64,000 nt of DNA from Elusimicrobiota bacterium (GTDB taxonomy: Bacteria; Elusimicrobiota; UBA5214; JBBAAG01), in assembly GCA_041658405.1 (NCBI GenBank), contig JBBAAG010000006.1, positions 6,004 to 70,003 of the forward strand, read 5' to 3'. Positions 2,980 to 51,456 of the stretch are shown here, one piece after another. Position 1 is the first letter of the stretch. Every line of letters starts with the position of its first letter. The notes beneath the pieces were generated by a model that saw only the letters and a list, made by a program, of their open reading frames with translations, was not told the DNA's origin and searched no databases. Made by a program: the position numbers and the translations under genes.

Positions 2980-3597
2980 GTGCAAGGGAATAATGTTGAA
3001 CCAAAAGATACCGGTAATCGTGTGTGTAGCGAAAACGAGTTGATAACGAGCGCCATAAACGGCGACCGTAACGCGTTTGGTAAGATTGTAGAGTTGTACG
3101 CAGTACAAGTCTATAACCTTAGTTATCGTTTGACGGGTAACGAACCTGATGCGAAGGATCTTTCGCAGGAAGTGTTTTGCAGGGCATTAAAACTGATTGG
3201 CGAGTTTAAACAGGAAAGCAGTATCTCTACATGGCTGCACAGGATCGCTGTTAATTTGTGGTTGAATAATGTCAAGCACGGGAACATTGTTAAATATGAA
3301 TCTTTAGATAAGTCAGTGGTTAATGAAGAAGATAATGAAATAAAACGCGAATTTATGAGTAATGAACTTGGGCCGGAAGAAAAAGTTGTGGTAAAAGAGT
3401 TTAACCGGTTGTTGCAGGATGCGTTAAACGAGTTGACGCCGGAACAACGTGTAGCGTTTGTGTTGAAGTATATCGAAGGAAAATCGTTGAAGGAAATCGC
3501 AAAGATCTGTAATTGCAGCGTGTCGTTGGTAGGGGTGAGGTTGGCGCGCGCGTTGGTAACGCTGAACGGCAAGTTGAAGCAGTATTATAAAACGTGA
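2980..3597 (+). CDS. ECF-family RNA polymerase sigma-70 factor
   Basis: GTG start with an AGGAG RBS. It carries a region 2 (YRLTGNEPDAKDLSQEVFCRA) and a region 4 HTH (LTPEQRVAFVLKYIEGKSLKEIAKICNCSVSLVGVRLARA). 205 aa. Confidence 0.85.
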   Translation: MQGNNVEPKDTGNRVCSENELITSAINGDRNAFGKIVELYAVQVYNLSYRLTGNEPDAKDLSQEVFCRALKLIGEFKQESSISTWLHRIAVNLWLNNVKHGNIVKYESLDKSVVNEEDNEIKREFMSNELGPEEKVVVKEFNRLLQDALNELTPEQRVAFVLKYIEGKSLKEIAKICNCSVSLVGVRLARALVTLNGKLKQYYKT

Positions 3598-12277: not shown

Positions 12278-14392
12278 ATGATATTGATACAAACAATATT
12301 GACTGCTGCAGTATTATTATTGACTACAATCTCAGGTTTTGCTGAATCAAAAGATTTTACGTTTATCCAGCTTACTGACGGGCATATGGAAAAAGGCGCG
12401 GTGTACCTATCGTCGACTATTGCCGAGATTAACAAGCTAACACCCGCGCCGGAGTTCGCGGTATTCACCGGCGATTTCGCGAATTACGGAACCGTACGTG
12501 AGTTCGATAAGTATGCGCAGATAATGGATGGACTTAACTATAAGTACTACACGGTTCTTGGTAATCACGAGACACAGAATAACGATGTCGGGTACTATAC
12601 GTACCAGCAACGTTACGGCAGTCCATACCATTCGTTCGACCACAACGGTATCCATTTTGTGTTACTCAACACCGGAGTGTCTTCAACCGGTGCAGGGTTT
12701 ATCACAGCTGCGCAGCTGGAGTGGTTGCGTTCTGACCTACAAAAAATAGGAACACAAATGCCGGTATTCCTGTTCTCCCACCACCTGCCAACGGATAGAG
12801 GTATTGGCAATAACGTGGAGGTTTATCAGGTGATTAAAGATTATAATATCCGCGCGTGGTTCACCGGGCATTTACATGCAACAAGGCATTTTATATGGAA
12901 TGGTATTCACGTGTTGGTAACCAAAGACACGCTTACCTGCGGCTATCGTATCATTCAGGTAAAAGGGGATAAGGTGTTCACTTATAACAAAGAAGTCGAT
13001 AAGCCTGAATCACCGGATAAAGTGGTGATTGGCCTGTATACAAAAAAATCTGCGCCCGAGTACGAACTCATATCTCCGGGGTATCAGGTTGATACTGCAA
13101 CGTCCATTACTTGTGCGGTTAAGTTTTCAACATTAACACTTACCGCAGTGAAAGCGTCCCTTCGCGCGAAGGTGGACCGCGATACAACATACACGCTTGT
13201 GTACTCTACGATAACACAGTTGTGGCAACAAAACATTCCAGTGATTCAGGGGAATCATACGTTGATAATACAGATGGTACTCACTGAGAAAACAACGTTT
13301 TATTCCGGCAACGTAGTGTCTACCGGCACAATAGGGTATATTTGGGAAAAATCTTATAACTTTACCGTCGGAGATAACGCAGTAGCGTGGAAGTACGCAA
13401 CTGGTGATATGGTGATATCAGCGCCGGTGGTTGAAAATGGAAATGTTTACTGCGGTTCAGCAGATGGAACAATGTATTGTTTATCTGCGAGTACCGGCGG
13501 AGTGAAGTGGAAATACGCAACTAACGGCATAATCTCCGGTGATCCTGTCATTTATAAGGACAAACTTATATTTGGTTCTCATGACGGTAATGTTTATGTG
13601 TTGGATAAAACCGCGGGGGCGTTGTACTGGAAATACACGAGTACTGTGCCGGTATATTCCACGCCGGTAGTAGCTGAGTCAAAGGATGGGGATTTTAATA
13701 ACACGCGGATCGTTGTTGCGCATGGAAACGGATTAATAGCAGGGCTTTCCTTTACCGACGGGACGGTATTGTGGCGATACAATACAAAATATGCGGTATC
13801 AATTTGCCCGGCATATAACCGTGAAAACGGTACCGTTTATTTCGGCGGGTGGGATGGGTATACCCGCGGGATTTCTGTTTCCACAGGCGGTGTGGTATGG
13901 TCCCGTCGTATTTATCGCGGAATGTGGGGCGCACCGGGGTCGAACTCGCCGGTGATTGACGGGGATAAACTGTACCTCAACGATATCGGTAAAGTGTACG
14001 CGTTAACCTTGTCCTCCGGCAGTACGGTATGGAGTTCGACTGTTACACATAGCACGTCAAAACCTGTGATTTATGGAGATAAAGTTATCGTATGTTCTTC
14101 TGACAATAAAGTACAGGCGTATGATAAAAGTACTGGCGCGTTGTTATGGCGGGTACAAGCTAAGCATGGGATCCACCGCGCACAACCGGTGATTTACAAC
14201 GATTATCTTGTGATATCCACATCCTGGGGTACGGTACATATTATGAATCCCGATACCGGCAAAATTGTGTATAATTACCAATTATCTGATTATCAGGTAA
14301 CATCAACACCGTGTATAATGTCAGGTAAGCTTTATATTGGCTCTTCTGACAAAAACGTGTATGCGGTTGAGCTTGATAGAATTATGAAGTAA
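12278..14392 (+). CDS. secreted calcineurin-like metallophosphoesterase fused to a PQQ/BamB-like beta-propeller
   Basis: Signal peptide. MPE motifs are LTDGHM, FTGDFANYG, LGNHE and GHLHATRH. The C-terminal PQQ-type repeats include AWKYATGDMVISAPVV, CLSASTGGVKWKY and VLDKTAGALYWKY. 704 aa. Confidence 0.75.
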   Translation: MILIQTILTAAVLLLTTISGFAESKDFTFIQLTDGHMEKGAVYLSSTIAEINKLTPAPEFAVFTGDFANYGTVREFDKYAQIMDGLNYKYYTVLGNHETQNNDVGYYTYQQRYGSPYHSFDHNGIHFVLLNTGVSSTGAGFITAAQLEWLRSDLQKIGTQMPVFLFSHHLPTDRGIGNNVEVYQVIKDYNIRAWFTGHLHATRHFIWNGIHVLVTKDTLTCGYRIIQVKGDKVFTYNKEVDKPESPDKVVIGLYTKKSAPEYELISPGYQVDTATSITCAVKFSTLTLTAVKASLRAKVDRDTTYTLVYSTITQLWQQNIPVIQGNHTLIIQMVLTEKTTFYSGNVVSTGTIGYIWEKSYNFTVGDNAVAWKYATGDMVISAPVVENGNVYCGSADGTMYCLSASTGGVKWKYATNGIISGDPVIYKDKLIFGSHDGNVYVLDKTAGALYWKYTSTVPVYSTPVVAESKDGDFNNTRIVVAHGNGLIAGLSFTDGTVLWRYNTKYAVSICPAYNRENGTVYFGGWDGYTRGISVSTGGVVWSRRIYRGMWGAPGSNSPVIDGDKLYLNDIGKVYALTLSSGSTVWSSTVTHSTSKPVIYGDKVIVCSSDNKVQAYDKSTGALLWRVQAKHGIHRAQPVIYNDYLVISTSWGTVHIMNPDTGKIVYNYQLSDYQVTSTPCIMSGKLYIGSSDKNVYAVELDRIMK

Positions 14393-21588: not shown

Positions 21589-23103
21589 TTAACTTTCGTA
21601 AAGTTTTGTTGTTGAAAACTGCGGGTCGCTCGTGAGGTTTACCCCAAGTTTTTTTAATCCGGCGTCATCTCCCGGTGTGGGGATATGCGTGGTATGAACT
21701 TCACAACCCTGTAAATCCTTGAGTTTTTCCATCGCAAGCTGTGCTGCGGGATTTGATGCGGAACTTATACTCAACGCTATAAGCGTTTCTTCCAGGTCGA
21801 GGCTGACATTTTTTGCGCCTAATATAGTTTTTTTGAATTTACCTATGGATTCCAGGATGTTAGGCGATAATAAATGTATATTTTTAGGTATCCCCGCAAG
21901 TTTTTTTGTTGCGTTCAGTACAAGGCATGATGCTGCGTGCATCAACGCAGAATTTTTGCCGGTAACTACGGTACCGTCTTGCAGCTCAATCGCTGCACCG
22001 CAGTAAATACCGTTATGCCCTTTTTTCTTTGTTTCCGCATCTTTTGCAGCTTCACGTGCCGGTGCGACAACACTGCGGGCTTCAGGTTTCAGCCCGAGTT
22101 GTTCCATCAGCATTTCTTCACGCTGGACAGTATCTCTTTCTTCCAACCCCATAGCATACTCGCAACACGCACGGAAGTAGCGCCGTATAACTTCCTGTTT
22201 TGCCGCGTCCTTCACAATTTCGTCGTCAGTTATTCCGAAGCCTGCACGGTTGACACCCATATCCGTAGGTGATTTATACACATCTTTGGTACCCATTATT
22301 TTTTCTAGTATACGACGTATCACAGGAAATACTTCTACATCGCGGTTGTAGTTTATCAAGGTTTCCCCGTATGCTTCAAGGTGGTGAGAGTCAATCATAT
22401 TAAAATCTTTGATATCCGCGGTAGCGGCTTCATACGCAACGTTGACCGGATGCTTAAGCGGGATGTTCCAGATAGGGAATGTTTCGAATTTAGCGTAGCC
22501 CGAGTTTTTGCCGTGCTGGTGGTCATGATAAAGCTGGGAGAGGCACGTGGCGAGCTTCCCACTGCCGGGGCCCGGTGCGGTGACAACAACTAACGGCTTA
22601 TTTGTTTTTATATACGGATTAGCGCCGTACCCGTCTTTACTGACGATTGTGTCAATATCGGTTGGGTATCCTTTGATTGCGAAGTGAGTATATACGTTAA
22701 CCCCGCGGCGTTCAAGTTTGGTTTTAAACAATTTCGCAGCGGGTTGGTTGCCGAACCGCGTGATTACAACCGCGAGGACGTTTATATCCCATTCTTTGAG
22801 GTCGTCAATAAGCTTCATAGCGTCAACGTCGTAGGTGATCCCGAAATCTGCACGGATTTTACGGCGTTCAATATCACCGGCGTAGATGCATAGTATGATA
22901 TCCGCATTGTCTTTAAGTTTTTGGAGTAACCGCATTTTTACGTTGGGGTCAAAACCGGGTAGTACGCGCGCAGCATGGTAGTCATAAATAATTTTTCCGC
23001 CGAACTCAAGATAAAGTTTGTTATCAAACCTTTTTGCGCGTTCCATAATCGCTGCAGTTTGTTCGTTAAGGTATTTTTCGTTGTCAAACCCTGTTTTTCT
23101 CAT
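21589..23103 (-). CDS. DUF1846 (UPF0371) family protein
   Basis: 504 aa. The N-terminus [49 protein letters not shown] is characteristic of UPF0371/DUF1846. It is convergent with the RND gene. Confidence 0.65.
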
Positions 23104-23494
23104 CTTGGCATGCTCCTTCTTTTATTTTTTTTGTTTTAAACACATAAATTTGGTTTGCCAGGCGGTACCAACCCTGGACGCTGTTCTCGAGTTTGAAGTA
23201 GTGGATAATATAGGGAATCAGGAGTATAAAAAATAACGCGTCTACAATAATGAAGCCAGTATTTTTGGAGTAAAGAGTGAAAAATACTGTTAACAGAGAC
23301 ATTATGGCAAACGCGAGGGTTACTAATAAATGTATTAACCGTTCATGCTGCAGGTATTTTATCTGCTGGTTATGGAATCTGTAGAGCTCTTCCCAGTCGT
23401 ATGCCGGGTCATAGTTTTCTATCAACGTGCGGATATGTGTTTCGTGTTTCTTCAAATATGCGTTCATATTTTTATCAAATAAATACCCCTTCAA
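23084..23494 (-). CDS. small membrane protein (2 TM), hypothetical
   Basis: 136-aa ORF overlapping the DUF1846 start by 20 nt. It has two hydrophobic helices ([23 protein letters not shown] and [17 protein letters not shown]). Confidence 0.4.
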
Positions 23495-23652
23495 TTATGA
23501 TAACGCCATTGTTTAAAAGTAATTATAGTACCCGTTTTCCTATGTTGCAACAATAATGTTAAAAATATTTATACTGAGTACAATTTTATATAATTATAAA
23601 ATTAGAGCGCGGGTGTTGATTATACATAAGTTCATATCAGGAGATTTTCTGT

Positions 23653-25938
23653 ATGCTATCAAAAAGGTTTCAGCAGTTTAAACTTGAAGCGGAGAAGGAT
23701 GTAGGGAGTAAACAGCGGTATGACTTTCTGCTTGACCGCGCTGTATTGTTGACGGAAGGGTATAAGCTTAACACTGCCGTACCGTTCGAACTTAGACGTG
23801 CAAAAGCGTTGGCGTACCTCATAGCAAATACTAAACCGCGGATGGATGAATCATCAATTATTGCGGGGTATTACCCGCATGTAAACGGTATGATGATCGC
23901 ATATCCCGAATTATTTGGGTCAGGGGTGAAAGATATAAATGATTATGTTTCGAAAAAACCATACAAAGGAAAACAAAAAGCGCAGCTTGTCGACGTTCTT
24001 GAGTTTTGGACACGGCAGGCGCCGGTGAGTTTAAATACTGCTATTTCTGATCCCAAAATAGGAAGTTATCGATATAACGGCATATTTATGGGTTCTGGTT
24101 GGTGTAACGGGCATTGTGTGCCGAATCACGAAAAAATTTTAAAGATAGGGTATTCCGGTGTAGCTAAAGAAGCAATTGCTGTAATTAAGAAATTAAAACC
24201 TGAAGCACCAGGTTTTTATGAGCATAAACTGTTTTTAGACGGGATTATCGATATTTGTAATGCTGTAAAAGTTTTTGGGGAGAACTATGCTGCGGAACTT
24301 GAACTACGTGCAAATAAATGTGGTGGTACAGAACGCCAGAGGTTGTTAATACTTGCGGATACCTGCCGCCGGGTGCCGTACTATCCTGCGGAAAGTTTTA
24401 TCGATGCTGTGCAATCATTATGGTTCCAGCATATGATGATTACTATGGAAGACCAGCCTAACGCGCAATCACCCGGCAGGATAGACCAGTTTCTTTATCC
24501 TTACTTCAAAAAGGATAAGGTTGATGACGCGACAGCTACTGAATTAATGACAGACTTGTTTTTGAAATACTGGAAACCCTATGATGTGCAGAACACGATG
24601 GTTGGCGGGCAGAGGGTTGACGGTACTGACGCAGTAAATGAGTTGTCGTATATCACTCTAAAAGTGCTGAAGGATTTGCATATGATCCGCCCGGTATCCG
24701 TTAGATATCACAAGAAAACGGATTTCGGGTTAATTGAAGCTGCTGCGGATGTTATCTCTGACGGTATGGGTGTTCCCATGATGTTCAACGACGATATTAT
24801 AATCCCGTCATTGCTGGATAAAGGTATTTCTTTGGAAGACGCGAGGGATTATGCGATTATCGGGTGTATTGAAGTGACTATCTCCGGGAAAGCCAACCCC
24901 CGAGCGGTGAGTCATTTAATGAACCTCGGAAAATGTTTTGAGCTCGCAATAAATAATGGTAAAGACATGCGTACTGGCGGACAGCTTGGAGTAGAAACCG
25001 GGTATCTATATAACTGTAAGAACTCTGCGCAGTTAATGAGAATATATAAGCAACAGGTTGAATATTTTGCGAAGTACGCGGTTGCAATGTCGAATACCGG
25101 CGAAAAAATTCAGGCGTCAACTTATCCTATGCCTATCCTCTCTGCGATGACGGATGATTGTGTATCCCGCGGGGTGGACATCACAAAAGGCGGAGCAAGG
25201 TATAACTACCATAGTACCTGCGGGATCGGTGTGCCAAATGTTGCGGACTCAATCGCTGCGGTTGATACTTTATGTTTTAAAACAAAAAAGTTGTCATTAC
25301 GCAAGGTGTATAACGCATTAAAAAGTAATTATAAGGACACTGAACCTGTGCGCCTGTTGTTGCTAAACCACGCGCCAAAGTACGGTAATGATATTGACTA
25401 TGTGGATAAGTACGCACGTGAAGTTGCGGGGCATTACTGCGACGTTATGAGTAAACACCGCAGCCCTACCGGGCAGTATTTTACGCACCTGTTTTCGTTC
25501 CGGTGGCACCTTGATCCGTGCGGGAAAAATTGCTGGGCAACGCCTGACGGGCGCAGGGCCGGTGATCCGCTGGCATACAGTATTTCCGCAACACAGGGAC
25601 GGGATATTATCGGTGCGACAGCTGTGTGTAATTCAGTTGCAAAAATTGACCATCGGAAGTCCGCGGCAGGGACGTCGTTTATTATTGAACTTCATCCCAG
25701 CGTGTTTGATGATGATGGATACAAAAAAGTTGCGGCACTGATGAAAACCTTTTTTGATAACGGCGGGGGTCAGTTGCAGTTCAATGTTGCCTCCGCGGAT
25801 ACTTTAAAAAAAGCACAGGAGAAACCTGAGGATTATAAAAACCTTTTTGTCCGGGTATCAGGTTTCAGCAGCCAGTTTGTTACGCTTGATAAAGAAATGC
25901 AGGATCATATTATTGCACGGACTAAGCATAGAAGGTGA
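23653..25938 (+). CDS. glycyl radical enzyme (PFL-like fold), eliminase-type Cys-x-Glu thiyl loop
   Basis: 761 aa. The C-terminal glycyl-radical motif is FVRVSGFSSQFVTLDKEMQDHIIARTKH. The thiyl loop is IGCIEVTISG, a single Cys followed by Glu as in choline lyase and glycerol or Hyp dehydratases, not the PFL Cys-Cys. Confidence 0.8.
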   Translation: MLSKRFQQFKLEAEKDVGSKQRYDFLLDRAVLLTEGYKLNTAVPFELRRAKALAYLIANTKPRMDESSIIAGYYPHVNGMMIAYPELFGSGVKDINDYVSKKPYKGKQKAQLVDVLEFWTRQAPVSLNTAISDPKIGSYRYNGIFMGSGWCNGHCVPNHEKILKIGYSGVAKEAIAVIKKLKPEAPGFYEHKLFLDGIIDICNAVKVFGENYAAELELRANKCGGTERQRLLILADTCRRVPYYPAESFIDAVQSLWFQHMMITMEDQPNAQSPGRIDQFLYPYFKKDKVDDATATELMTDLFLKYWKPYDVQNTMVGGQRVDGTDAVNELSYITLKVLKDLHMIRPVSVRYHKKTDFGLIEAAADVISDGMGVPMMFNDDIIIPSLLDKGISLEDARDYAIIGCIEVTISGKANPRAVSHLMNLGKCFELAINNGKDMRTGGQLGVETGYLYNCKNSAQLMRIYKQQVEYFAKYAVAMSNTGEKIQASTYPMPILSAMTDDCVSRGVDITKGGARYNYHSTCGIGVPNVADSIAAVDTLCFKTKKLSLRKVYNALKSNYKDTEPVRLLLLNHAPKYGNDIDYVDKYAREVAGHYCDVMSKHRSPTGQYFTHLFSFRWHLDPCGKNCWATPDGRRAGDPLAYSISATQGRDIIGATAVCNSVAKIDHRKSAAGTSFIIELHPSVFDDDGYKKVAALMKTFFDNGGGQLQFNVASADTLKKAQEKPEDYKNLFVRVSGFSSQFVTLDKEMQDHIIARTKHRR

Positions 25939-25956
25939 ATAGGTAATACAATTTAA

Positions 25957-26775
25957 GTGGAGAAAGCCGTAATCTTTGATATCCAGCGGTTCTCGGTTCA
26001 TGACGGGTACGGTATACGTACTACCGTATTTTTTAAGGGATGCACTCTTAATTGCGTATGGTGCCAGAACCCGGAATCGATTTCCGCGAAAAAACAGTTG
26101 TTGTTTCATTCCGAACTTTGTATTACCTGCGGTGCGTGCGCAATAATTTGTGGTAACGGGCATAAGATTTTACATAATAAACATGTATTCAATCGCAGGC
26201 CTTGTATATCGTGCGGGAAATGTACGTCCGCGTGCTTGACAAAAGCGTTGGTGGTTTCCGGGAAGGAAGTTACTGTAAACGATATCTGTGATGAAGTGGT
26301 GAAGGATAAAAAGTTTTATAGTTCTTCCGGTGGGGGTGTAACATTTTCGGGGGGTGAGCCTCTGGTATACTCATTGTTTATCCGCAGGGTAATGGATAAA
26401 TTGAAGAAAGTAAAGGTCGGGGTTGCAATCCAAACCGCGGGGAATGTTAAATGGGAAAATATTGAACGCGTGATCGATGCTGATATTTTTATGTATGACC
26501 TTAAACTTATGGATCCCGGGCTTCATAAAAAGTATACAGGATATTCCAATGACCTTATACTCCAGAATCTCAGGAAATTATCTGCCCTGCGTAAAGTAGT
26601 TGTGCGGACACCGTTAATCCCCGGGATCACTGATACCAAAAAAAATGTTGCTGCTATAAAACGTTTTGTGTCTGCACTACCAAACGTTATAGAATTAAAG
26701 TTCCTGCCTTATAACGAATTCACGCCGGCAAAATATAATGCGTTAGGGCTTAAATATAAACTTCGCAGCATTTAA
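25957..26775 (+). CDS. glycyl-radical enzyme activating enzyme (radical SAM)
   Basis: GTG start 18 nt after the GRE stop. CTLNCVWC is the CxxxCxxC radical-SAM motif. A ferredoxin-like Cys cluster CITCGACAIIC is present. The N-terminus IFDIQRFSVHDGYGIRTTVFFKGC is typical of GRE activases. Confidence 0.85.
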   Translation: MEKAVIFDIQRFSVHDGYGIRTTVFFKGCTLNCVWCQNPESISAKKQLLFHSELCITCGACAIICGNGHKILHNKHVFNRRPCISCGKCTSACLTKALVVSGKEVTVNDICDEVVKDKKFYSSSGGGVTFSGGEPLVYSLFIRRVMDKLKKVKVGVAIQTAGNVKWENIERVIDADIFMYDLKLMDPGLHKKYTGYSNDLILQNLRKLSALRKVVVRTPLIPGITDTKKNVAAIKRFVSALPNVIELKFLPYNEFTPAKYNALGLKYKLRSI

Positions 26776-26824
26776 TATTTCATAGTATTTACAAAAATAT
26801 TTAAATGTGATATATTTTTTTATT

Positions 26825-27928
26825 ATGAAAACGCCATATTATTTTATCGACGAAAATAAGTTGATGTATAATCTTCTTAAAATAGAGAAGTTGCGCAAAC
26901 TTTCCGGGACAAAGTCAGTGCTCGCGCTTAAATGTTTTTCTACATGGTCAGTATTCAACCTTATGCGTAAGTATATGGATGGAACCACAAGTAGTTCGTT
27001 GTACGAAGCAAGGCTTGGGCATGAAAAGTTTGGGAAAGAAGTTCATGCGTACAGTGTTGCATGGAAGGATAACGAAATCAGTGAAGTAAAAAAGTATGCA
27101 AGTAAGGTTATCTTCAATTCTATTTCTCAATTAAACCGTTTTTATAGAGAAGTCAGGACGTTGCCTTTGGGTTTACGTGTGAACCCCGGGATTAGTTATT
27201 CGCATTTTGACCTTGCAAATCCTGTACGTAAATATTCGCGGTTAGGCGTGTGCAGTATTAATGATGTAGAACGCGTGCTTCCAAAAATATCCGGGTTAAT
27301 GTTTCATTATAACTGCGAGAATAATGACTATAAAAACATCTGCCAAAACCTTAGTTTCATCGCGGATAAATACGGGAAAATACTGAAAAAACTTGACTGG
27401 GTAAGCCTTGGCGGCGGGTATTATTTTACGCAGAAAGGGTTCCCGCTTGAAAAGTTTGCACATAAACTCAAGGAGTTTAGCACAACTTTTGGTGTGCAGG
27501 TATACCTTGAACCCGGGGAAAGTTCTATCACTCAAAGCGCAGAGCTTGTCACTACAGTCGTAGATATTGTGCGTAACAAAAAAAGTGTTGCGATAGTCGA
27601 CGCATCAACGGAAGCGCATATGCTTGACCTCCTGATCTACCGCATCCCGGCGAAGATGGAATACGGTATAAGTAAAACCGGAAAGCATAGGTACATCGTT
27701 GCGGGACGGTCATGTTTAGCGGGTGATATTTTTGGTGAGTACTCTTTTAAATCGCCGTTGCGGATAGGCAGTGAACTGCGTATTACCGACGCTGCGGGGT
27801 ATACTATGGTGAAAAAAAACTGGTTCAACGGTTTACAAATGCCGTCGATTGTAGTGAAAAGGTTAAACGGTAAATTGGACATCATAAAAAGTTTTAGTTA
27901 TAATGATTTTAAAGATAGTTTGTCGTAA
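26825..27928 (+). CDS. nspC: carboxynorspermidine/carboxyspermidine decarboxylase (fold-III PLP decarboxylase)
   Basis: About 368 aa. The N-terminus MKTPYYFIDENKL and the adjacent CANSDH gene fit the alternative spermidine pathway. The ORF track offers a GTG at 26807; the ATG at 26825 is preferred. Confidence 0.6.
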   Translation: MKTPYYFIDENKLMYNLLKIEKLRKLSGTKSVLALKCFSTWSVFNLMRKYMDGTTSSSLYEARLGHEKFGKEVHAYSVAWKDNEISEVKKYASKVIFNSISQLNRFYREVRTLPLGLRVNPGISYSHFDLANPVRKYSRLGVCSINDVERVLPKISGLMFHYNCENNDYKNICQNLSFIADKYGKILKKLDWVSLGGGYYFTQKGFPLEKFAHKLKEFSTTFGVQVYLEPGESSITQSAELVTTVVDIVRNKKSVAIVDASTEAHMLDLLIYRIPAKMEYGISKTGKHRYIVAGRSCLAGDIFGEYSFKSPLRIGSELRITDAAGYTMVKKNWFNGLQMPSIVVKRLNGKLDIIKSFSYNDFKDSLS

Positions 27929-27953
27929 TATGAAACAAGGAGATTAAGTTTAG

Positions 27954-29189
27954 ATGAGAAAGAACGTGTTGATCATCGGTGCGGGCGGTGTTTCGCATGT
28001 AGCAGCGCATAAGGCTGCAATGCATAACGACGTATTAGGCGATATCTGTATAGCGTCACGGACACAAAAAAAGTGTGATGCTATAATAGAAAGCGTTAAC
28101 CGAAAAAATAATGTTAAGGATAAAAGTAAAAAACTGTATTCCCGCCAGGTCAACGCATTAGACGTAGCTGCAACAAGTAAGCTTATCAAAGAAACAAAAT
28201 CTGATATCGTCCTTAACCTCGGGCAGGCGTATGTTAATATGTCAGTCCTTGAAGCATGTATCAATACCGGTGCGGTGTATATGGATACCGCAATACATGA
28301 AGATCCGGGTAAGGTATGCGAGGACCCGCCCTGGTACGCGAACTACGAATGGAAACGCCGTGACCGGTGTAAGGACAATAAGGTTACAGCAATCCTTGGG
28401 GTTGGGTTTGATCCCGGTATAGTCAACGCATGGTGCGCGCTTGCGGTAAAGCATTACTTCGACAAGATTGATACCATCGATATTATGGATGTCAACGCAG
28501 GTAGTCACGGTAAATATTTCGCAACAAACTTTGATCCTGAGATAAACTTCCGTGAGTTCAAAAAAGTGTGGACATGGATTGACCGTAAATGGGTGGAAGC
28601 TAAAGTACATGATGTGAAACGGTTCTACAACTTCCCGGTTGTCGGTAAACTGCCGATATATCTTAACGGCCATGACGAACTTCATTCGTTATCAAAAAAT
28701 ATTGATGCTAATAGTATCCGTTTTTGGATGGGTTTCGGGGATCATTATATTAATGTGTTCACAGTACTTACCAAGCTCGGGTTAACCTCCGAGAAACCGA
28801 TTAAGACCGCGGAAGGTGTTGAGGTTATACCGCTGAAAGTCCTGAAAGCATTACTTCCCGACCCGTCGTCATTAGCGCCGGGGTATACCGGTAAAACGTG
28901 TATCGGTAATCTTATTAAAGGAACTAAAGACGGGAAACCTAAGAAAGTGTTTATCTACAATATCTGTGACCATGCGGAGTGTTATAAAGAAATTGAAGCA
29001 CAGGCAATTTCGTATACTGCCGGAGTGCCGCCCATAGCTGCAGCGATGCTTGTCGCTAACGGTAAGTGGGATGTCAAACGTATGGTCAATGTTGAAGAAC
29101 TTGACCCGGACCCGTTTATTGAACTGCTAAACGGTATGGGCTTACCAACAGAAGTGTTGGAGAACCCGCCTGAACAGGAAATGCCATAA
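27954..29189 (+). CDS. carboxynorspermidine synthase/dehydrogenase (saccharopine dehydrogenase family)
   Basis: AAGGAG RBS. The N-terminal Rossmann motif is VLIIGAGGVSHVAAHKAA. The 411-aa length and the neighbouring nspC fit a CANSDH. Confidence 0.65.
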   Translation: MRKNVLIIGAGGVSHVAAHKAAMHNDVLGDICIASRTQKKCDAIIESVNRKNNVKDKSKKLYSRQVNALDVAATSKLIKETKSDIVLNLGQAYVNMSVLEACINTGAVYMDTAIHEDPGKVCEDPPWYANYEWKRRDRCKDNKVTAILGVGFDPGIVNAWCALAVKHYFDKIDTIDIMDVNAGSHGKYFATNFDPEINFREFKKVWTWIDRKWVEAKVHDVKRFYNFPVVGKLPIYLNGHDELHSLSKNIDANSIRFWMGFGDHYINVFTVLTKLGLTSEKPIKTAEGVEVIPLKVLKALLPDPSSLAPGYTGKTCIGNLIKGTKDGKPKKVFIYNICDHAECYKEIEAQAISYTAGVPPIAAAMLVANGKWDVKRMVNVEELDPDPFIELLNGMGLPTEVLENPPEQEMP

Positions 29190-29208
29190 TATATTTTCTG
29201 TAGAGTGT

Positions 29209-30393
29209 TTATGTGCGTATCTTCAACGTAAACACAAGGTTTACCAGTGCGAGTACTGCGCCGCTGAGGAAAATGTATTCGTACCCGAACCGAGTCCATA
29301 CAATACCGCCGAGTAATGCAACACTTATCGAGAATACGTGGTCAATCGACGTTCCTGCGGATAATGTTGCGGTAACGTCCTGCGGAGATAATGCTACTTT
29401 CTTAAGATACGTAGCGCGGGCCATACTCACAGACATTAGCAGCTGGTCTATGATATAACACCCGCTGATGATTGCCAGTGCAACACCATGGCTGAACATT
29501 TTACCTGCAAATCCATAGAATACGCAGACAAATACTGTCATCACGGTTTCTATAGAAAGGATCACGCGTTCACCGTACTTATCGATCCATCTCCCGAGTA
29601 AGGGTTTGAATACTATACCTATAATCCCGCCGATAGTGAGCAACGTTGCGATTGCCTGTGTTGGCTGCATATACACGGTGATCAATACCCACGGAGCGAA
29701 GGTCATGAATAACTGTTTTCTCGTGCCGAACATCACGGTTAGGATGTAATACAAATAGTACTCTTTCCGGTAAACAAGTTTTGTTTTAAACGGGACGGGC
29801 ATATTTTTTTTCATCCCGAATATTAACCCCGCAGCGAGAAGCAGGAATACAGCGGAAATTATGAATGCCGTGGGAAAGTTTAACCTCAAATATTTGAACC
29901 CCAGAAAAATAAAGAAACTACCGGCAATCGCTGCGAAATTACCCGCACCCTGTAACTGCCCAAGCCGGCGGCCGGTCTTCCCATCCCTCGCGAGTTCCAT
30001 CCCGATATCCGAGGTTAACGGCAAAAATATGTGCTGGCCTAAACTGAAGATAAACAGCCAGGCAAGCATTACAGAAAAACTTTTTGCTGTAAGGGCAATT
30101 AATAATATCCCGATGGCAGCAAGAACCTGTGATACCGCTGCCAAAGTGCGGTTACAAAAGAAAAATAGTAGTGCAGATATAAAAACTACCATCACACCGG
30201 GAAGTTCACGCGGGAGTTCAATCACTGTCCTCTGCAGGCTCGTGATAGCGTATTGTTCATTCAAGAAGTTGTTGAATGTAGACTCCACAATACTTGACGC
30301 AAAGCCAATGAATACAGTTGCCAGTAAAAATAGCCAGAAGTCGCGGGGTAATGATCTTGCTTTATCTTTAAACTGTTCAATATACTTTTTCAA
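29209..30393 (-). CDS. MFS transporter (12 TM)
   Basis: 394-aa hydrophobic protein convergent with the CANSDH gene. It has a GRRLGQLQG-type MFS loop. Confidence 0.7.
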   Translation of the reverse strand: MKKYIEQFKDKARSLPRDFWLFLLATVFIGFASSIVESTFNNFLNEQYAITSLQRTVIELPRELPGVMVVFISALLFFFCNRTLAAVSQVLAAIGILLIALTAKSFSVMLAWLFIFSLGQHIFLPLTSDIGMELARDGKTGRRLGQLQGAGNFAAIAGSFFIFLGFKYLRLNFPTAFIISAVFLLLAAGLIFGMKKNMPVPFKTKLVYRKEYYLYYILTVMFGTRKQLFMTFAPWVLITVYMQPTQAIATLLTIGGIIGIVFKPLLGRWIDKYGERVILSIETVMTVFVCVFYGFAGKMFSHGVALAIISGCYIIDQLLMSVSMARATYLKKVALSPQDVTATLSAGTSIDHVFSISVALLGGIVWTRFGYEYIFLSGAVLALVNLVFTLKIRT

Positions 30394-30465
30394 AAAATAA
30401 TCCTTATGTTCTGTTGATACTATAGTTTATAACAAAAAATGTGTTAAGTTGTTATAATATTGATT

Positions 30466-32409
30466 ATGAATATATTTATCGTAGTTATAATTTTACTCTG
30501 TATCCCTGTTACGGGATATACCGCCACGTCAATCGATGCGGATAATACAAATATACAGTATATCGGCCGGATAGATTTTAGTAACCCAAAAAAACCTGCG
30601 TTTGACTGGTCCGGCGCGTATATTTACGCAAGGTTTACCGGTACCTCATGTAAGATCAGGGTACAGGAGCCAATGGCGGATTGTTGGTATAACGTTTTTG
30701 TTGATAACGCAGCGCAGCCGCTGGTTATTGGTTCGACAGTAGCAGCGGCAGTGGTATATCCTGTTGCCAGCGGGCTAGCGGATACCACGCATTCAATACT
30801 TATCACGCGAAGAAATGAAGCGTCACTCGGGAAAACACAGTTTCTCGGGTTTATCCTCGATACTGGGGAGGCATTACAGGCATGTCCCGCGCGTCCCACA
30901 CGGAGGATTGAAGCAATCGGTGATTCAATCACCTGCGGGTATGGCAATATGGGCGCCGCGACGGATACTTTTAAAAAGTCTACGGAAAACAATTATCTTA
31001 CTTACGAAGCAATAGCTGCACGGGCGTTAAACGCAGATTTTACAGTTGTTGCATGGTCAGGGAAGGGTGTTATACGCAACTACGACGATTCAGTAACGGC
31101 TTCCGCTACGCCATTACCTATGTATTATTACCGTACATTGGGGAATAGTGTTAATTCCTCAACCTGGACTTTTATACCTCAACCACAGGTTATTACGATA
31201 CATCTTGGGACTAATGATTTCTCAACTAGCCCGAATCCCAGCCAAACACAGTTTGAGAACGCGTACCTCGCATTTGTCCAACAGATACGGTTAAGGAATC
31301 CTGATGCGCATATCGTATGTATTTACAGTACATTAATAAAAAGCGCGGTCAAGCCGTATATCCAGGATGTGGTAACACAATCGGGGGATAGTAAAGTACA
31401 TTTCGCGGATCTCGGAGTTACGCTTAACTATCCCGCAGACTGGGGTGCCAGCGGGCATCCAAACGTAAGCGGGCATCAGAAAATGGCAAATGCGCTGGTA
31501 CCGTTGATACAAAACTTTTTTGTTGCGGATTCAACTCCGGTTAATACCGCACCGGAAACGCCGTATACACTTACCGGCAGCAGTTATACTCTGACGAATA
31601 CCACCTGCACGTTTAATACTGCCGCCACCGATCCTGATGGTGATAATGTGAAGTACCGGTACGACTGGGGTGACGGAACTACAACGGAGACTACACTGCA
31701 AACTTCTGGAGTAACGGTATCCGTACAGCATTCATGGCCCGCAATCGGGCAGTATAGTGTTAAAACAAAAGCTGTTGATGAGCATAACGAAGAATCCGCG
31801 TGGTCAGCTGTATTAACCGTGAGGGTATCTTCCGTAACGTATTACTGCACTCTCAGCACCTCAATAAACCAGGTTGAGTGGGGATACATAACAAAAACAC
31901 CGGAGAAAAGTGTTTATATTAAAGGTGAACAATTACAACTTACTGCTGTCCCGTCTGAAGGTTATAGGTTCACGAGTTGGTCCGGCGGGGTGACGAGCGA
32001 AACAAATCCATTGACCTTAGCATTGGCTACCAATACCGCAGTAACCGCAAATTTTGAGATCATCATCCAAAGTACTTTTAGTTTAACCATAAATATATCC
32101 CCTACCGGTGCGGGGGCCGTTACAAAACAGCCGAATATGATACATTACTCATCGGGGACTACGGTAACGCTTACCGCAAAAGCGGCAGAGGGTTATGCTT
32201 TTAAAGAATGGGCCGGTGATGTTATGAGTACGTCTAATCCAGTAACGTTTAAGATGTCTTCCCCAAAAACTCTTACCGCCGTATTTGACGTGCGGGCGGT
32301 TGAGCAAGAAGATACTGTAAAACCTGCGGAAGTTCATATCGGTTCAAGCGGGGGTATCCGCAAAAAAATCGGTGAGTTAAAACAAAAAATGTCTTCCACA
32401 GGACAGTGA
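30466..32409 (+). CDS. secreted SGNH/GDSL hydrolase fused to a PKD domain and two divergent InlB B-repeat (Listeria-Bacteroides repeat) domains
   Basis: ATG at 30466 after a TATAAT. Signal peptide. IEAIGDSITCGYG is a GDS(L) motif. KYRYDWGDGTT is a PKD motif. YRFTSWSGGVTSETNPLTLALATNTAVTANF and YAFKEWAGDVMSTSNPVTFKMSSPKTLTAVF are the LBR-type repeats. Confidence 0.75.
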   Translation: MNIFIVVIILLCIPVTGYTATSIDADNTNIQYIGRIDFSNPKKPAFDWSGAYIYARFTGTSCKIRVQEPMADCWYNVFVDNAAQPLVIGSTVAAAVVYPVASGLADTTHSILITRRNEASLGKTQFLGFILDTGEALQACPARPTRRIEAIGDSITCGYGNMGAATDTFKKSTENNYLTYEAIAARALNADFTVVAWSGKGVIRNYDDSVTASATPLPMYYYRTLGNSVNSSTWTFIPQPQVITIHLGTNDFSTSPNPSQTQFENAYLAFVQQIRLRNPDAHIVCIYSTLIKSAVKPYIQDVVTQSGDSKVHFADLGVTLNYPADWGASGHPNVSGHQKMANALVPLIQNFFVADSTPVNTAPETPYTLTGSSYTLTNTTCTFNTAATDPDGDNVKYRYDWGDGTTTETTLQTSGVTVSVQHSWPAIGQYSVKTKAVDEHNEESAWSAVLTVRVSSVTYYCTLSTSINQVEWGYITKTPEKSVYIKGEQLQLTAVPSEGYRFTSWSGGVTSETNPLTLALATNTAVTANFEIIIQSTFSLTINISPTGAGAVTKQPNMIHYSSGTTVTLTAKAAEGYAFKEWAGDVMSTSNPVTFKMSSPKTLTAVFDVRAVEQEDTVKPAEVHIGSSGGIRKKIGELKQKMSSTGQ

Positions 32410-32914: not shown

Positions 32915-35314
32915 ATGAGAGAACAAAAAATGTGTGTTTTAGCAGCGGTATTGGTAGCTTTAACTGTAATACCGGTACTTGCAGCGGATGATGAACCCGA
33001 GGATGTGAGCTCAACAATAACAGCGGCGGTACAACCGGTGAGTATAACAGTATCGGGTGCTGTGTTTATTGACAAAAACGGGAATAATGTTATGGATCCC
33101 GGCGAAAACGGTATTGAAGGTATACAAATAACTGATGGTGTAAGTATTATCCTTACCGGCAAAGACGGGACGTACAAAATCGTTGCAGACTACATAAAAT
33201 CACCGTTTGTATATGCCACCCAGCCTAACGGTTACAGATTCGCAGGGAAGTTTTATACATATATCACAACAGTAACTGCTGTGATGACGTCAAACTTCGG
33301 GATTGTCCCGGTTGAGGGTTCAACCTCACCTGATCATACGTTTGTGCATATAACGGATATCCATATCGGCAGAGGCGGGCTTGGCACTGTTTATGATAAT
33401 GCAGTGAAAGAGATTAACGGATTAACCCCAAAACCTGCGTTTATAACAGCTACCGGCGATCTTGTGAATGCAGGGAAGGATACAAAAAGTTATGAAAAGT
33501 ATGCCGATATCATAAGTAAGTTTAACCTTCCGATATACAACGTTTTGGGAAACCACGATATACCGGTAAAGAATTATGAAATGTTCTTAGGCCCTGCGTA
33601 TTACTCCTTTGATTACGGTACCCGGCATTTTGTTGTGGTCAACTGCAAAGAAGAGAACAGGTATACGCCATGGCTTATGCAGGACCTGGAATTGAATAAA
33701 GACAAAGAAATTGTGGTGTTCCAGCACTACCACCCGGAGAAAAAGTTGCTGGATTTACTGTCAAAATATAACACCAGGGCATTATTATTCGGGCACTGGC
33801 ATTCTACACGGACAATAATGTACGGTAAGATAATGATTATCGCTACACAATCATGGTTATTCGGGGGTATAGACTTTTCACCAAAAGGTTTCCGTGTGAT
33901 AACATTCAAAAACGGTAAATTATCGGCCGAAATTAAGTACTCTGGAATTACGCGCCACGCAGTTATCGCAAGTCCCGCACAGGAAGTTCGGGCAGGTGAG
34001 GATATAGATATACGTGTTAACCTGTACGATACGGTATCCGGTATCGCTGCGGTTGAGGCGAAGATCGATAACGGTAAATCTTTGGTATTAACCCCGCAAG
34101 GCGGATGGTTATGGAAAACCCAGGTACCTGTCCCGGGTAAAAAGTTGTCAACGGGTAAACACATAGTATCTATAAAAGTTCACGGGGTGGATGGTTCAAC
34201 ACTAGGCATGTCTTCTGAGTTTATGATAACTAAAACCCCGGTGGTAACTTCCCCGAAGTTGGTTAGCACAGTGTATGCCGGTAACAATACAGCGTTCTCA
34301 TCACCGGCAATATACAAAAACACAACAATTGTTGGAACACAGGATGATAGGACAGTAGATACCAGCGCAATTGTTGCAGTTGATAACACAGCGGGTAAAG
34401 TTGTGTGGAAGTACGGTACTGACAGTGCGGTCATCGGCAGTGTTGTGATAAACAACGGTATTGCTTATGGTATTTCCGTTACGGGTACGTTGTACGCGGT
34501 AAACGCAGAGGACGGTGTATTACGCTGGAAGTATACATTGAACGCTCCGGAACAGCGCTGGGTATACAATGCTCCGGAAGTAAAGGACGGGGTTGTATAT
34601 TTTGGTGTACCGTCACAGTTTGTTGCGTTAGATGCGAATACCGGATACCAAGTATGGGCATCAACGGGGTTAGGCAGTACGGACTGGATAAGTACGAGGA
34701 TGGCACCGTATAGCGACGGAAAAAATGTGTATATTGCATTTAACTGGCACGGCGTGCTTAACGCTGTGGATAAAACTACCGGGAGTACTGTTTGGCGGTA
34801 TAAGTTCGGCGGGCGGTATACCAGCGCAAAAGTCGCGGAGAACGGTAACTTAATATACTTCACAGCGGATAAAAAATTATACGCTATCGATAAAAGTACA
34901 GGCGGTGTAGTGTGGGCGTACACGGTTAAATCGCTGTGGAACGCATCAGAGCCGGTAGTAACCTCCGACGGGACCGGGCTTATCATCGGTACATCCGATG
35001 GGCAGGTGGTTAGATTAAACACCGCAGCGGGAACAAAAGTGTGGGAGTATCAAACCGGTAAAGAAATCGGGTGTTCATTACCCTACCGCAGTGCGGGTGT
35101 CAGCGCAGTGATGTCCTCACCGTTAATAGTAAATAATATGGTGTATGTCGGTTCAAATGATGGTAATGTTTACGCGCTGGATGCCGGGACAGGTGAAAAA
35201 AAGTGGGGATACACTCTTGGCGTGCCGGTAGTATCAAAACCGGTAGTTGAAGGGGATAAGGTTGTTATCGCAGCTACAGACGGGAATATCTATACACTCG
35301 AACAACCTAAATAG
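32915..35314 (+). CDS. secreted SdrD-B-like domain + calcineurin-like metallophosphoesterase + PQQ/BamB-like beta-propeller fusion
   Basis: Signal peptide. VSGAVFIDKNGNNVMDPGENGIEGIQITDG is an SdrD B-like/CnaB-type motif. MPE motifs are HITDIHIG, ATGDLVNAG, LGNHD and GHWHS. PQQ repeats fill the C-terminal half. It is a paralogue of the gene at 12278-14392. Confidence 0.75.
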   Translation: MREQKMCVLAAVLVALTVIPVLAADDEPEDVSSTITAAVQPVSITVSGAVFIDKNGNNVMDPGENGIEGIQITDGVSIILTGKDGTYKIVADYIKSPFVYATQPNGYRFAGKFYTYITTVTAVMTSNFGIVPVEGSTSPDHTFVHITDIHIGRGGLGTVYDNAVKEINGLTPKPAFITATGDLVNAGKDTKSYEKYADIISKFNLPIYNVLGNHDIPVKNYEMFLGPAYYSFDYGTRHFVVVNCKEENRYTPWLMQDLELNKDKEIVVFQHYHPEKKLLDLLSKYNTRALLFGHWHSTRTIMYGKIMIIATQSWLFGGIDFSPKGFRVITFKNGKLSAEIKYSGITRHAVIASPAQEVRAGEDIDIRVNLYDTVSGIAAVEAKIDNGKSLVLTPQGGWLWKTQVPVPGKKLSTGKHIVSIKVHGVDGSTLGMSSEFMITKTPVVTSPKLVSTVYAGNNTAFSSPAIYKNTTIVGTQDDRTVDTSAIVAVDNTAGKVVWKYGTDSAVIGSVVINNGIAYGISVTGTLYAVNAEDGVLRWKYTLNAPEQRWVYNAPEVKDGVVYFGVPSQFVALDANTGYQVWASTGLGSTDWISTRMAPYSDGKNVYIAFNWHGVLNAVDKTTGSTVWRYKFGGRYTSAKVAENGNLIYFTADKKLYAIDKSTGGVVWAYTVKSLWNASEPVVTSDGTGLIIGTSDGQVVRLNTAAGTKVWEYQTGKEIGCSLPYRSAGVSAVMSSPLIVNNMVYVGSNDGNVYALDAGTGEKKWGYTLGVPVVSKPVVEGDKVVIAATDGNIYTLEQPK

Positions 35315-35382: not shown

Positions 35383-35455
35383 TCCCCGGTAGCTCAATTG
35401 GTAGAGCACCTGACTGTTAATCAGGTGGTTGATGGTTCGAGTCCACCCCGGGGAG
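35383..35455 (+). tRNA. tRNA-Asn (anticodon GTT)
   Basis: Manual fold: acceptor TCCCCGG/CCGGGGA, D-arm GCTC-AATTGGTA-GAGC, anticodon arm CCTGA-CTGTTAA-TCAGG, T-arm GATGG-TTCGAGT-CCACC, discriminator G, no encoded CCA. It closely resembles E. coli tRNA-Asn. Confidence 0.85.
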
Positions 35456-40780: not shown

Positions 40781-40978
40781 ATGATAAAGCGACGTGTCCG
40801 CTCAGGCTCTGAATTCTGCAATAAGTGCGGTATAGCAAATAATAGCGAACACTCTTGGTTACGCTCCCGGTCCAGTTTTCGATACATCCCTATACTTTGC
40901 CCCAAATGTTCGAAGACATTATCCAAGGATGTAAAAGAATTTATTAAGAACTGGCTGCATTTCAATCTCCCGCGTTGA
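40781..40978 (+). CDS. small zinc-ribbon protein (two CxxC pairs), hypothetical
   Basis: 65-aa ORF with CNKCG and CPKCS. It overlaps an antisense 73-aa ORF (40744-40965). Neither has a strong RBS. Confidence 0.3.
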   Translation: MIKRRVRSGSEFCNKCGIANNSEHSWLRSRSSFRYIPILCPKCSKTLSKDVKEFIKNWLHFNLPR

Positions 40979-42194
40979 CAATATAAACATCAGACCGTCC
41001 CCCATGGGCGGCAGTATAAGATATCCAGTTGCCGGAAGCGTCTGTTAACGGATGCGGGTGGGAATACTGCCCCGGGAGGCTTCCCCACTCGGTATTGTGC
41101 AAACAAATAGGTTCCAATTTCGGCTCGCTTTCTGTGCCATCTCCATAATATAACCATTGAAGCTTGTCACGGGAAAAGAATCCGTCGATGATCAGCGCCG
41201 GCTTGTTTGGTAACGGCGTATTGTGTCCATAAAAACTGGATTCAGGAAATACCCTCTCCCAGACTGTGTTACCGGTTGGCGTGGCCACTCCGAAATACTC
41301 CCCGCCGCTTTCCGCTTTTCCATGATAGCACATGGCAGACCCGTCCCAGAGCCACGCTTGGTGGCTTTGAAAATATCCTGGATAATATGTCTTCAACGGG
41401 CGGATCTTTCCTGTCTGTATGTCAAGCAACCAGATGCGCGATGTATGTCCGTCGCCCTTACCCCAGTATCCCGGCGGGAGATCCAGATCGAAATACAGCA
41501 GCCCGCCGTTGGACGGACAGAACGCGCAATGAGCGGACTGGGCCGGCGAAGGGTGTTCGTAAAGAATATCCATTATACCGCTTCCATCCATTGGTACACG
41601 GATCAAACGAAGGCGGTGTAAATATTCGCGATAGCGTTTTTGAGGAATTAGTGGCCATTGGCTGCCCCGCATCTCCGGGTGAGCTGAGCTTAGTGTGATT
41701 CCCACGTACTTCTCATCGGGAGAAACGCTTGGCGCTCCGAATATCCATTCATCGCCGCAGTCGTCCAAGATAATCCGCGCATCGCAGGTGTGAATATCCA
41801 CTGCCATGATGCGCCTCTCAATAGTGAACACTACTACACCAGATTTCGGGGCAATGCTGACACGGTTACCGCAAATTCCGCGGCCATCAACGTCGGCAAA
41901 GGTGAGGCACATCCCGCGGTGAATATAATTACGGTCGCCGACGCCCGGTGCGCGCCAAAGCGCTTTCAAGTCGCCTGTCTCGGCCTCTGCGGCAATAACC
42001 CATGTAGATCCTTCACGAACGGAGACGAACACCATGTATCGTCCGTCAGCGGAAAAACCTGAATTCGTATGATACGTAGGAGTCTGATTGATCCGTCCGG
42101 TGGTGGTCAAACGACGCACGGAGCGCCCGGTCAACGCATCACTATAAGTTTCTGACTCATTCCAAGTATCGCCGATCTTCATGCCTTCCTCCAA
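40962..42194 (-). CDS. oligogalacturonide-lyase-like beta-propeller protein (PL22-like)
   Basis: 410 aa, cytoplasmic. The N-terminal motif TYSDALTGRSVRRLTTTG matches the Ogl (D.TG..V.RLT) signature. WD/TolB-like propeller blades follow. Confidence 0.5.
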   Translation of the reverse strand: MEEGMKIGDTWNESETYSDALTGRSVRRLTTTGRINQTPTYHTNSGFSADGRYMVFVSVREGSTWVIAAEAETGDLKALWRAPGVGDRNYIHRGMCLTFADVDGRGICGNRVSIAPKSGVVVFTIERRIMAVDIHTCDARIILDDCGDEWIFGAPSVSPDEKYVGITLSSAHPEMRGSQWPLIPQKRYREYLHRLRLIRVPMDGSGIMDILYEHPSPAQSAHCAFCPSNGGLLYFDLDLPPGYWGKGDGHTSRIWLLDIQTGKIRPLKTYYPGYFQSHQAWLWDGSAMCYHGKAESGGEYFGVATPTGNTVWERVFPESSFYGHNTPLPNKPALIIDGFFSRDKLQWLYYGDGTESEPKLEPICLHNTEWGSLPGQYSHPHPLTDASGNWISYTAAHGGRSDVYIVNAGD

Positions 42195-51413: not shown

Positions 51414-51418
51414 TTTAT

Positions 51419-51425
51419 CTCCTCC
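51419..51425 (-). promoter_or_regulatory. Shine-Dalgarno (GGAGGAG) of the DUF3494 gene
   Basis: ctcctcc on the + strand, 5-7 nt upstream of the ATG (51411-51413 complement). Confidence 0.5.
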
Positions 51426-51456
51426 GATAATTATCATATTTCATCTATTACAGCTA

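Follow-up and report, generated by a model that had tools for sequence, protein, structure and literature searches.

Four plus-strand genes at 23653-29189 of the 64,000-nucleotide (nt) stretch of DNA analysed here (the window), which derives from an Elusimicrobiota metagenome-assembled genome, encode, in this order, a glycyl radical enzyme (GRE), a radical-SAM activase, a carboxynorspermidine/carboxyspermidine decarboxylase (NspC) and a carboxy(nor)spermidine dehydrogenase/synthase (CANSDH), and the question that this locus raises is whether the GRE works together with the two polyamine enzymes or only adjoins them. An earlier reading made from the DNA alone, called here the sequence-only reading, had proposed a functional unit joining the GRE to the carboxy(nor)spermidine route, keeping a mere coincidence of gene order as its fallback. 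Comparison with about 90 loci of relatives showed that the linkage between the GRE and nspC is not conserved, which argues for a coincidence of gene order and not for a new polyamine pathway, and makes the fallback the best-supported reading. With a probability of roughly 0.8, two independent and self-sufficient modules, GRE-activase and nspC-CANSDH, adjoin each other in a compact Elusimicrobiota genome. The features on which the argument turns are the following.

23495-23652, plus strand: AT-rich intergenic region of 158 nt, presumed to hold the promoter of GRE-activase; Shine-Dalgarno-like GGAG at 23640-23643
23653-25938, plus strand: GRE, 761 amino acids (aa); PF02901, 476 bits; PF01228, 96 bits
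25957-26775, plus strand: GRE-activating radical-SAM enzyme, 272 aa, GTG start; TIGR02494, 314 bits against a cut-off of 174
26776-26824, plus strand: AT-rich activase-nspC spacer of 49 nt with a sigma-70-like site inside
26825-27928, plus strand: carboxynorspermidine/carboxyspermidine decarboxylase NspC, 367 aa; TIGR01047, 424 bits against a cut-off of 409
27954-29189, plus strand: CANSDH of the saccharopine-dehydrogenase family, 411 aa; PF03435 and PF16653

As the sequence-only reading had described, the four genes are co-directional and separated by short spacers, of 18 nt between the GRE and activase genes, 49 nt between the activase gene and nspC (31 nt if counted to an upstream GTG) and 25 nt between nspC and the CANSDH gene, and its four assignments agree with the motifs and profile matches found here. 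The GRE carries the glycine loop RVSGFS and the Cys-x-Glu (CXE) loop GCIEVT, matches PF02901 with a full-length PFL-like domain and the Gly_radical domain PF01228 (cut-off, 22 bits), and is 100% identical to a deposited NCBI protein named 'MAG: pyruvate formate lyase family protein [Elusimicrobiota bacterium]'. The activase has a CX3CX2C motif (CTLNCVWC, 26041-26064) followed by two ferredoxin-like Cys clusters, and scores under all the substrate-specific activase equivalogs of NCBIfam. Among solved structures NspC matches PDB 3mt1 (447 bits) and 3n29 (264 bits), and CANSDH, which is built of the domains Sacchrp_dh_NADP (PF03435) and Sacchrp_dh_C (PF16653), matches 4ina (365 bits) and the 'carboxyspermidine dehydrogenase' 8deb (319 bits). 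CANSDH is below the equivalog cut-off of NF043000 (481 against 800 bits), a shortfall that may reflect a narrowly trained model. The real start of nspC is most likely the ATG at 26825, rather than the GTG at 26807, giving a 367-aa product identical to the deposited protein P0121.

Conservation of the two gene pairs

A scan of one genome per species yielded 80 nspC loci from many phyla, which were searched by tblastn with the window proteins (E<=1e-5); at least 900 nt of upstream sequence were present in 77 of them and at least 3200 nt in 69. CANSDH, 60-83% identical to that of the window, was encoded directly downstream of nspC in 73 of the 80 loci, while two of the remaining loci ended just after nspC and five had no CANSDH adjacency. 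No GRE or activase was found in any of the 80, and the other neighbours in the window, a DUF1846 gene and an MFS transporter gene, were absent from all of them, implying that there is no wider synteny. The nearest open reading frame (ORF) upstream of nspC was divergent (29 loci) or co-directional at a distance of at least 90 nt (35 loci) in 64 of the 76 loci that could be evaluated, a pattern that suggests nspC as the usual leading gene of its unit.

The window NspC is 57-70% identical to its relatives, among them hundreds from Elusimicrobia and Endomicrobia at 65-70%. Among relatives on long contigs, the closest (70% identical, on a contig of 970 kb) is encoded in a stand-alone bicistron that has a divergent MgtE gene on one side, a convergent gene on the other and no GRE, and another relative, 69% identical, has a divergent DUF192 gene upstream and no GRE either. 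Enzymes with 57-83% identity to the window CANSDH and NspC are encoded in genomes that have no GRE of this kind, so neither of the two requires a special partner. To judge from these comparisons of sequence, nspC-CANSDH is a conserved two-gene module and both window enzymes are canonical; they would carry out the ordinary alternative pathway, in which aspartate semialdehyde and putrescine or 1,3-diaminopropane are condensed, the product is reduced, and decarboxylation follows.

The same lack of linkage was seen from the side of the GRE. Eight loci of its clade, at 38-51% identity to the window GRE, were compared (L001, L002/L003, L004/L005, L087, L088/L089, L094/L095, L096 and L097/L098). An nspC or CANSDH homologue was present in none of these eight loci, all with readable flanks, and an adjacent activase in none of the seven with a readable downstream flank, the contig of L094/L095 ending at the GRE. 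The proposed functional unit thus had no counterpart among either the 80 nspC loci or the 8 GRE-clade loci, and is weakened further by the stand-alone bicistrons of the closest NspC relatives and by the short spacers found throughout the window, described below.

Closer relatives of the GRE were sought in larger collections. An exhaustive phmmer search of 1.84 billion cluster representatives found no relative above 46% identity. Outside a metagenome scan, the only relative above 51% was P0002, a 426-aa fragment on a 1.3-kb contig that is 69% identical to the GRE; the 44 nt 3' of its stop contain no activase start resembling the window junction, an uninformative result. The metagenome scan itself rendered seven GRE loci, the best matches being 49-64% identical, and no activase or nspC was found downstream of them within their short contigs.

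Family placement and active site of the GRE

The sequence-only reading had suggested that the GRE may form a new specificity class, and had named firm clustering within a characterised family whose members never neighbour polyamine genes as one outcome that would speak against its proposal. Instead, the GRE scored under the cut-off of every characterised NCBIfam equivalog, a result that, together with the pocket signature of its clade, supports a new class. The highest-scoring equivalog was the model for HypD, the trans-4-hydroxy-L-proline dehydratase (NF043068, 458 bits against a cut-off of 1100), and the scores were 404 against 1000 for the HpsG-type model NF048011, 371 against 1000 for NF048009 and 335 against 1050 for the CutC model TIGR04394; against the TIGR01774 subfamily the GRE reached 502 bits, the cut-off being 678. 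The best match in the PDB was 1r8w, the B12-independent glycerol dehydratase of Clostridium butyricum (464 bits, 34.7% identity), followed by the 1,2-propanediol dehydratases 5i2a and 9rco (392 and 388 bits). An AlphaFold2 model of the GRE (pLDDT 92.5, pTM 0.92) matched 1r8w in Foldseek with a TM score of 0.92, and the top 50 matches were all GREs; judged from this overall superposition, the modelled enzyme has the ten-stranded barrel fold of the PFL-like superfamily.

Several identities were rejected. Scores below the NCBIfam cut-offs led us to discard CutC choline trimethylamine-lyase (TIGR04394), as well as the C-S lyases IslA, IseG and HpsG and the dihydroxypropanesulfonate (DHPS) dehydratase HpfG; a sulfonate clamp of Arg/Gln/Arg is a feature of the C-S lyase and DHPS dehydratase GREs (PMC13450708). 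HypD was rejected on its score and on changed pocket residues, and glycerol/propanediol dehydratase on its score and on replaced pocket motifs. The residues on which these comparisons rest are listed here.

24112-24114, plus strand: His154, aligned with His164 of glycerol dehydratase and His160 of HypD, an invariant alignment column
24460-24468, plus strand: N270-A271-Q272, in place of H281-S282-I283 of the GHSISP motif of glycerol and propanediol dehydratases
24862-24879, plus strand: Cys loop GCIEVT, residues 404-409, with the predicted thiyl Cys405 and the predicted general base Glu407 (CXE)
24901-24909, plus strand: R417-A418-V419, in place of W445-H446-D447 (GWHD) of the diol dehydratases, part of the clade signature
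25852-25869, plus strand: glycine loop RVSGFS, residues 734-739, within PF01228, with Gly737 as the predicted radical site

The columns of C405, I406 and E407 were invariant in a 36-sequence alignment. The roles of Cys433, Glu435 and His164 are documented for glycerol dehydratase, in which Glu435 deprotonates the C1-OH and His164 protonates the leaving C2-OH (June 2026 review, Imrich et al., PMC13450708), and the conserved His has been described as an acid or as a residue that tunes the Glu (PMC13450708, PMC7077986). The CXE motif, as defined in that review, is used by the isomerase class too, so that it does not separate eliminases from isomerases (PMC13450708). On these residues the window GRE is most likely a 1,2-eliminase, and possibly an isomerase, since isomerases share the motif. 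The chemistry would be that of the glycerol and propanediol dehydratases: the radical-SAM activase would install a radical on Gly737, which would pass to Cys405, and the resulting thiyl radical would abstract a hydrogen from a substrate carbon that bears a hydroxyl; Glu407 would deprotonate the hydroxyl of the carbon attacked by Cys405, and His154 would assist the departure of a vicinal leaving group, most likely OH, yielding an aldehyde or a ketone.

Around this catalytic set the predicted pocket is remodelled. The motifs GHSISP and GWHD are conserved across the glycerol dehydratase and the two propanediol dehydratases aligned, and in the GRE they become PNAQSP (H281N, S282A, in the numbering of these dehydratases) and NPRAV (W445R, H446A, D447V). 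A ten-residue loop that carries Tyr/Phe339 in the glycerol and propanediol dehydratases is deleted, and Tyr640 and Ser642 of glycerol dehydratase are both replaced by Phe (Phe614 and Phe616). GHSISP (through Ser282), GWHD (through Asp447) and the Tyr/Phe339 loop reportedly have a role in substrate binding, and we take Ser282, Asp447, Tyr339 and Tyr640 of glycerol dehydratase to be functional residues. The pocket is predicted to be more hydrophobic, owing to Ala271, Val419, Phe614 and Phe616, with one added basic residue, Arg417. These substitutions are found clade-wide, in about 15 of the 150 best 50%-identity cluster representatives and in P0003-P0016, and define the signature NA[QNH] / GCIE[VIL]T / P[RH][AV]V / HLF[ST]F with the Tyr339 loop deleted, by which the GRE is placed in a small uncharacterised clade with a pocket signature of its own.

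That the GRE is nothing more than a B12-independent dehydratase of glycerol or 1,2-propanediol is very improbable. Its best sequence and fold matches (1r8w, 5i2a and 9rco) are such enzymes, and the catalytic Cys, Glu, His and Gly are conserved; however, the identity is 34.7%, the TIGR01774 score falls below the cut-off, both pocket motifs, the Tyr/Phe339 loop and the Tyr640/Ser642 pair are changed as described above, and no genes for a microcompartment, an aldehyde dehydrogenase or a 1,3-propanediol dehydrogenase lie nearby. Given the replacement of the pocket motifs, the substrate is expected to be other than glycerol, 1,2-propanediol, hydroxyproline or choline.

The sequence-only reading had also proposed that the pocket be aligned with those of characterised GREs. 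Such an alignment was made with the glycerol/propanediol dehydratases and with HypD, and the residues of the GRE differ from both; CutC and IslA were compared by score only. Asp278 and Asp339 of HypD are strictly conserved and essential, Asp278 binding the amine (PMC7077986). With the HypD-annotated P0092 as guide, the position of Asp278 corresponds to Asn270 in the GRE and the Asp339/Phe340 region is deleted, and no acidic residue is present at any mapped pocket position. CutC, too, binds its amine via an acidic residue. From the absence of acidic pocket residues together with the added Arg we infer an argument against a cationic, polyamine-like substrate, and the substrate is probably a non-amine.

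The neighbours of the GRE in other members of its clade encode GFO_IDH_MocA oxidoreductases (twice), a 3-keto-disaccharide hydrolase, a GH130 enzyme, glycosyltransferases, an acyl carrier protein, URO-D-like proteins (twice) and a PocR-domain histidine kinase. The GFO_IDH_MocA genes are located upstream of the GRE on the opposite strand, adjoining it in L094 and three genes off in L096. Four relatives of about 905 aa and about 42% identity, P0003 (L096, 8001-10712), P0004, P0007 and P0008, contain a discoidin (F5/8 type C) domain, and the order of their Pfam matches (PFL-like, F5_F8_type_C, PFL-like) places the discoidin domain as an insertion within the PFL-like domain. This architecture is unusual for a GRE and, as a sequence feature, hints at carbohydrate binding. 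Taken together, the neighbourhoods of the clade hint weakly at a sugar-derived or carbohydrate-related substrate.

Transcript structure and the proposed metabolic unit

The genes upstream of the GRE (a 136-codon ORF and the DUF1846 gene) are on the minus strand and hence divergent from it. The 136-codon ORF (23084-23494, minus strand), which was uncalled, has a hydrophobic stretch and a probable start at MNAYLKK; 20 nt of it are shared with the start of the DUF1846 gene, and neither Pfam nor NCBIfam yielded a match. No riboswitch or RNA element was matched in an Rfam search of 23000-30600 at E<=1.

Spacers of up to 50 nt separate 25 of the 34 co-directional neighbour pairs of the window, with a median of 25 nt. 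Twelve co-directional genes with spacers of up to 77 nt occupy 224-21568 and have unrelated functions; they include genes for an HMGL-like enzyme, an EamA transporter, an esterase, an extracytoplasmic function (ECF) sigma/anti-sigma pair, a 1869-aa Kelch-repeat protein, an outer-membrane protein, a metallophosphatase, GDPD, DUF6785 and an RND efflux system. As short spacers are the norm of the window, also between unrelated genes, tight packing is no evidence of an operon in this genome, and at 49 nt the spacer between the activase gene and nspC is rather wide for the tightly packed pairs.

This spacer contains TTTACA-17 nt-TATATT at 26788-26816, with a TG before the -10, the resemblance being to the sigma-70 consensus only. 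The -10-like element ends 9 nt 5' of the nspC ATG, and no Shine-Dalgarno sequence precedes the ATG at 26825. The spacer is therefore a candidate for a separate promoter of nspC-CANSDH, putative on the match of its sequence, and the nspC mRNA would be leaderless or near-leaderless if the site is used. The polyamine pair probably has its own promoter here, with read-through from GRE-activase conceivable.

Such read-through is the substance of an alternative that differs from two independent modules in transcript structure only: all four genes would be transcribed from the GRE promoter without metabolic coupling, both pairs being expressed, for instance, under anoxia. The shared strand, the lack of a terminator-like structure in the 49-nt spacer and the many unrelated genes packed co-directionally in the window with comparable spacers are consistent with it, whereas the sigma-70-like site with its extended -10, 9 nt before an ATG that has no Shine-Dalgarno sequence, suggests that nspC has its own start, and among 76 relatives 64 have nspC as the leading gene of a unit. 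We regard this alternative as possible but less likely than not.

Several observations weigh against the reading as two independent modules. Chiefly, no GRE relative above 70% identity with usable context was found, adjacency being compared only among more distant relatives, and the window GRE is the only member of its clade seen with an adjoining activase. None of the three spacers contains a terminator-like hairpin, and since there is none between the activase gene and nspC the four genes may be co-transcribed. None of the four genes stands out from the window in GC content, GC3 or codon usage, and these measures thus give no indication of a recent arrival of the GRE or of the polyamine module. 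Finally, a scan of 39 ORFs spread over the 64-kb window turned up neither an aldehyde or alcohol dehydrogenase gene nor one for a microcompartment shell; there is thus no nearby enzyme to take the product of the GRE, yet CANSDH consumes an aldehyde.

The last point is among those that would be explained by a four-gene metabolic operon, in which the GRE would supply or process the substrate of the polyamine enzymes, for example by converting 4-hydroxy-L-threonine (2-amino-3,4-dihydroxybutanoate) to L-aspartate beta-semialdehyde for CANSDH, or by elimination on a hydroxylated diamine. In its favour, all four genes run in one direction, and the 18, 49 and 25 nt that separate them contain nothing resembling a terminator; CANSDH, which consumes an aldehyde, is the only enzyme at the locus that handles one; the added pocket Arg (R417) could bind a carboxylate; and the GRE fits no characterised family. 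However, the adjacency occurs in none of the 80 nspC loci and none of the eight GRE-clade loci with readable flanks, NspC and CANSDH are 57-83% identical to enzymes of genomes without such a GRE, the R/H417 signature is common to clade members in sugar-type contexts without polyamine genes, and short spacers are uninformative in this genome. A link between the GRE and polyamines is unlikely on this comparative evidence, and we consider the four-gene operon very unlikely. A role of the GRE as a new 1,2-eliminase of amino acids or amino alcohols that feeds the polyamine enzymes, for example with aspartate semialdehyde made from 4-hydroxythreonine, appears highly improbable.

If true, the polyamine link would make this the first GRE to take part in building a primary metabolite and would open a new way into the alternative spermidine route, and the 4-hydroxythreonine version would amount to a radical, anaerobic bypass of aspartate-semialdehyde dehydrogenase within a lineage-peculiar four-gene spermidine/norspermidine operon. 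A search of one literature library found no paper pairing 'glycyl radical enzyme' with 'carboxyspermidine' and none relevant for GRE and spermidine, and the June 2026 review of GREs reports no polyamine-linked GRE (PMC13450708). With two independent modules as the preferred reading, the locus still offers a modest lead in the form of a small clade of eliminase-like GREs with its own pocket signature that is a reasonable target for substrate discovery. Many GRE clades, some of them entire, are still unannotated (PMC13450708), and this clade, as one of many such, adds to a known gap and opens no new question.

Other genes of the window complete the picture of the locus. No other polyamine gene (speA, aguA or aguB) and no asd was found among the 39 ORFs scanned. 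A 2-oxoacid:ferredoxin oxidoreductase is encoded at 59451-61972, which fits an anaerobe, where a GRE can work. The ECF sigma factor (2980-3597) is followed by a zf-HC2 anti-sigma factor (3610-4545) and, 10 nt further on, by the 1869-aa Kelch-repeat/beta-propeller protein (4556-10165). A paralogous pair at 12278-14392 and 32915-35314, each with a calcineurin-like metallophosphatase domain and PQQ-like beta-propeller repeats, flanks the region on either side. A tRNA gene at 35383-35455 (plus strand; RF00005, 69 bits) is the only Rfam match at gathering level in the window. The gene at 40962-42194 (minus strand), with weak similarity to oligogalacturonate lyase, has a GC content of 0.53 and a GC3 of 0.55, against about 0.43 for the window, and may have come by horizontal transfer; between about 42 and 50 kb the window is AT-richer instead (GC 0.37-0.39). 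A protein with a strong ice-binding-like domain is encoded at 50535-51437 (minus strand; PF11999, 247 bits).

Comparison with known systems

Among characterised GREs, the glycerol dehydratase of C. butyricum (DhaB1, 1R8W/1R9D, with its activase DhaB2) resembles the window enzyme in its fold, its CXE loop, the equivalent of His164 and the Gly loop, in having an adjoining PFLE_PFLC-type activase with ferredoxin-like clusters, and probably in a mechanism of radical 1,2-elimination. The two differ in sequence (34.7% identity) and in the pocket, where H281/S282 are N/A, W445/H446/D447 are R/A/V, the Tyr339 loop is deleted and Y640/S642 are F/F, and the GRE locus of the window lacks a 1,3-propanediol dehydrogenase. 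The 1,2-propanediol dehydratases (that of Roseburia inulinivorans, PD, 5I2A/5I2G; and 9RCO) superpose on the GRE model with TM scores of 0.89-0.90 and share its catalytic Cys, Glu and His, but they keep GHSISP and GWHD, which the window GRE lacks, and their loci are associated with microcompartments, whereas the window locus is not.

HypD (6VXC) has in common with the GRE the CXE loop and the equivalent of its His160, and the model of its activase is the top equivalog for the window activase (306 bits against a cut-off of 425). It is unlike the GRE in that its Asp278 is replaced by Asn270 and its Asp339/Phe340 region is deleted, and the scores of both window proteins are far below the cut-offs of the HypD system.

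The alternative spermidine/norspermidine pathway, consisting of CANSDH/CASDH and NspC/CASDC, occurs in Vibrio and Campylobacter. The window pair has the same order and spacing as 73 of the 80 loci compared here, and differs from this known system only in its unusual upstream neighbour.

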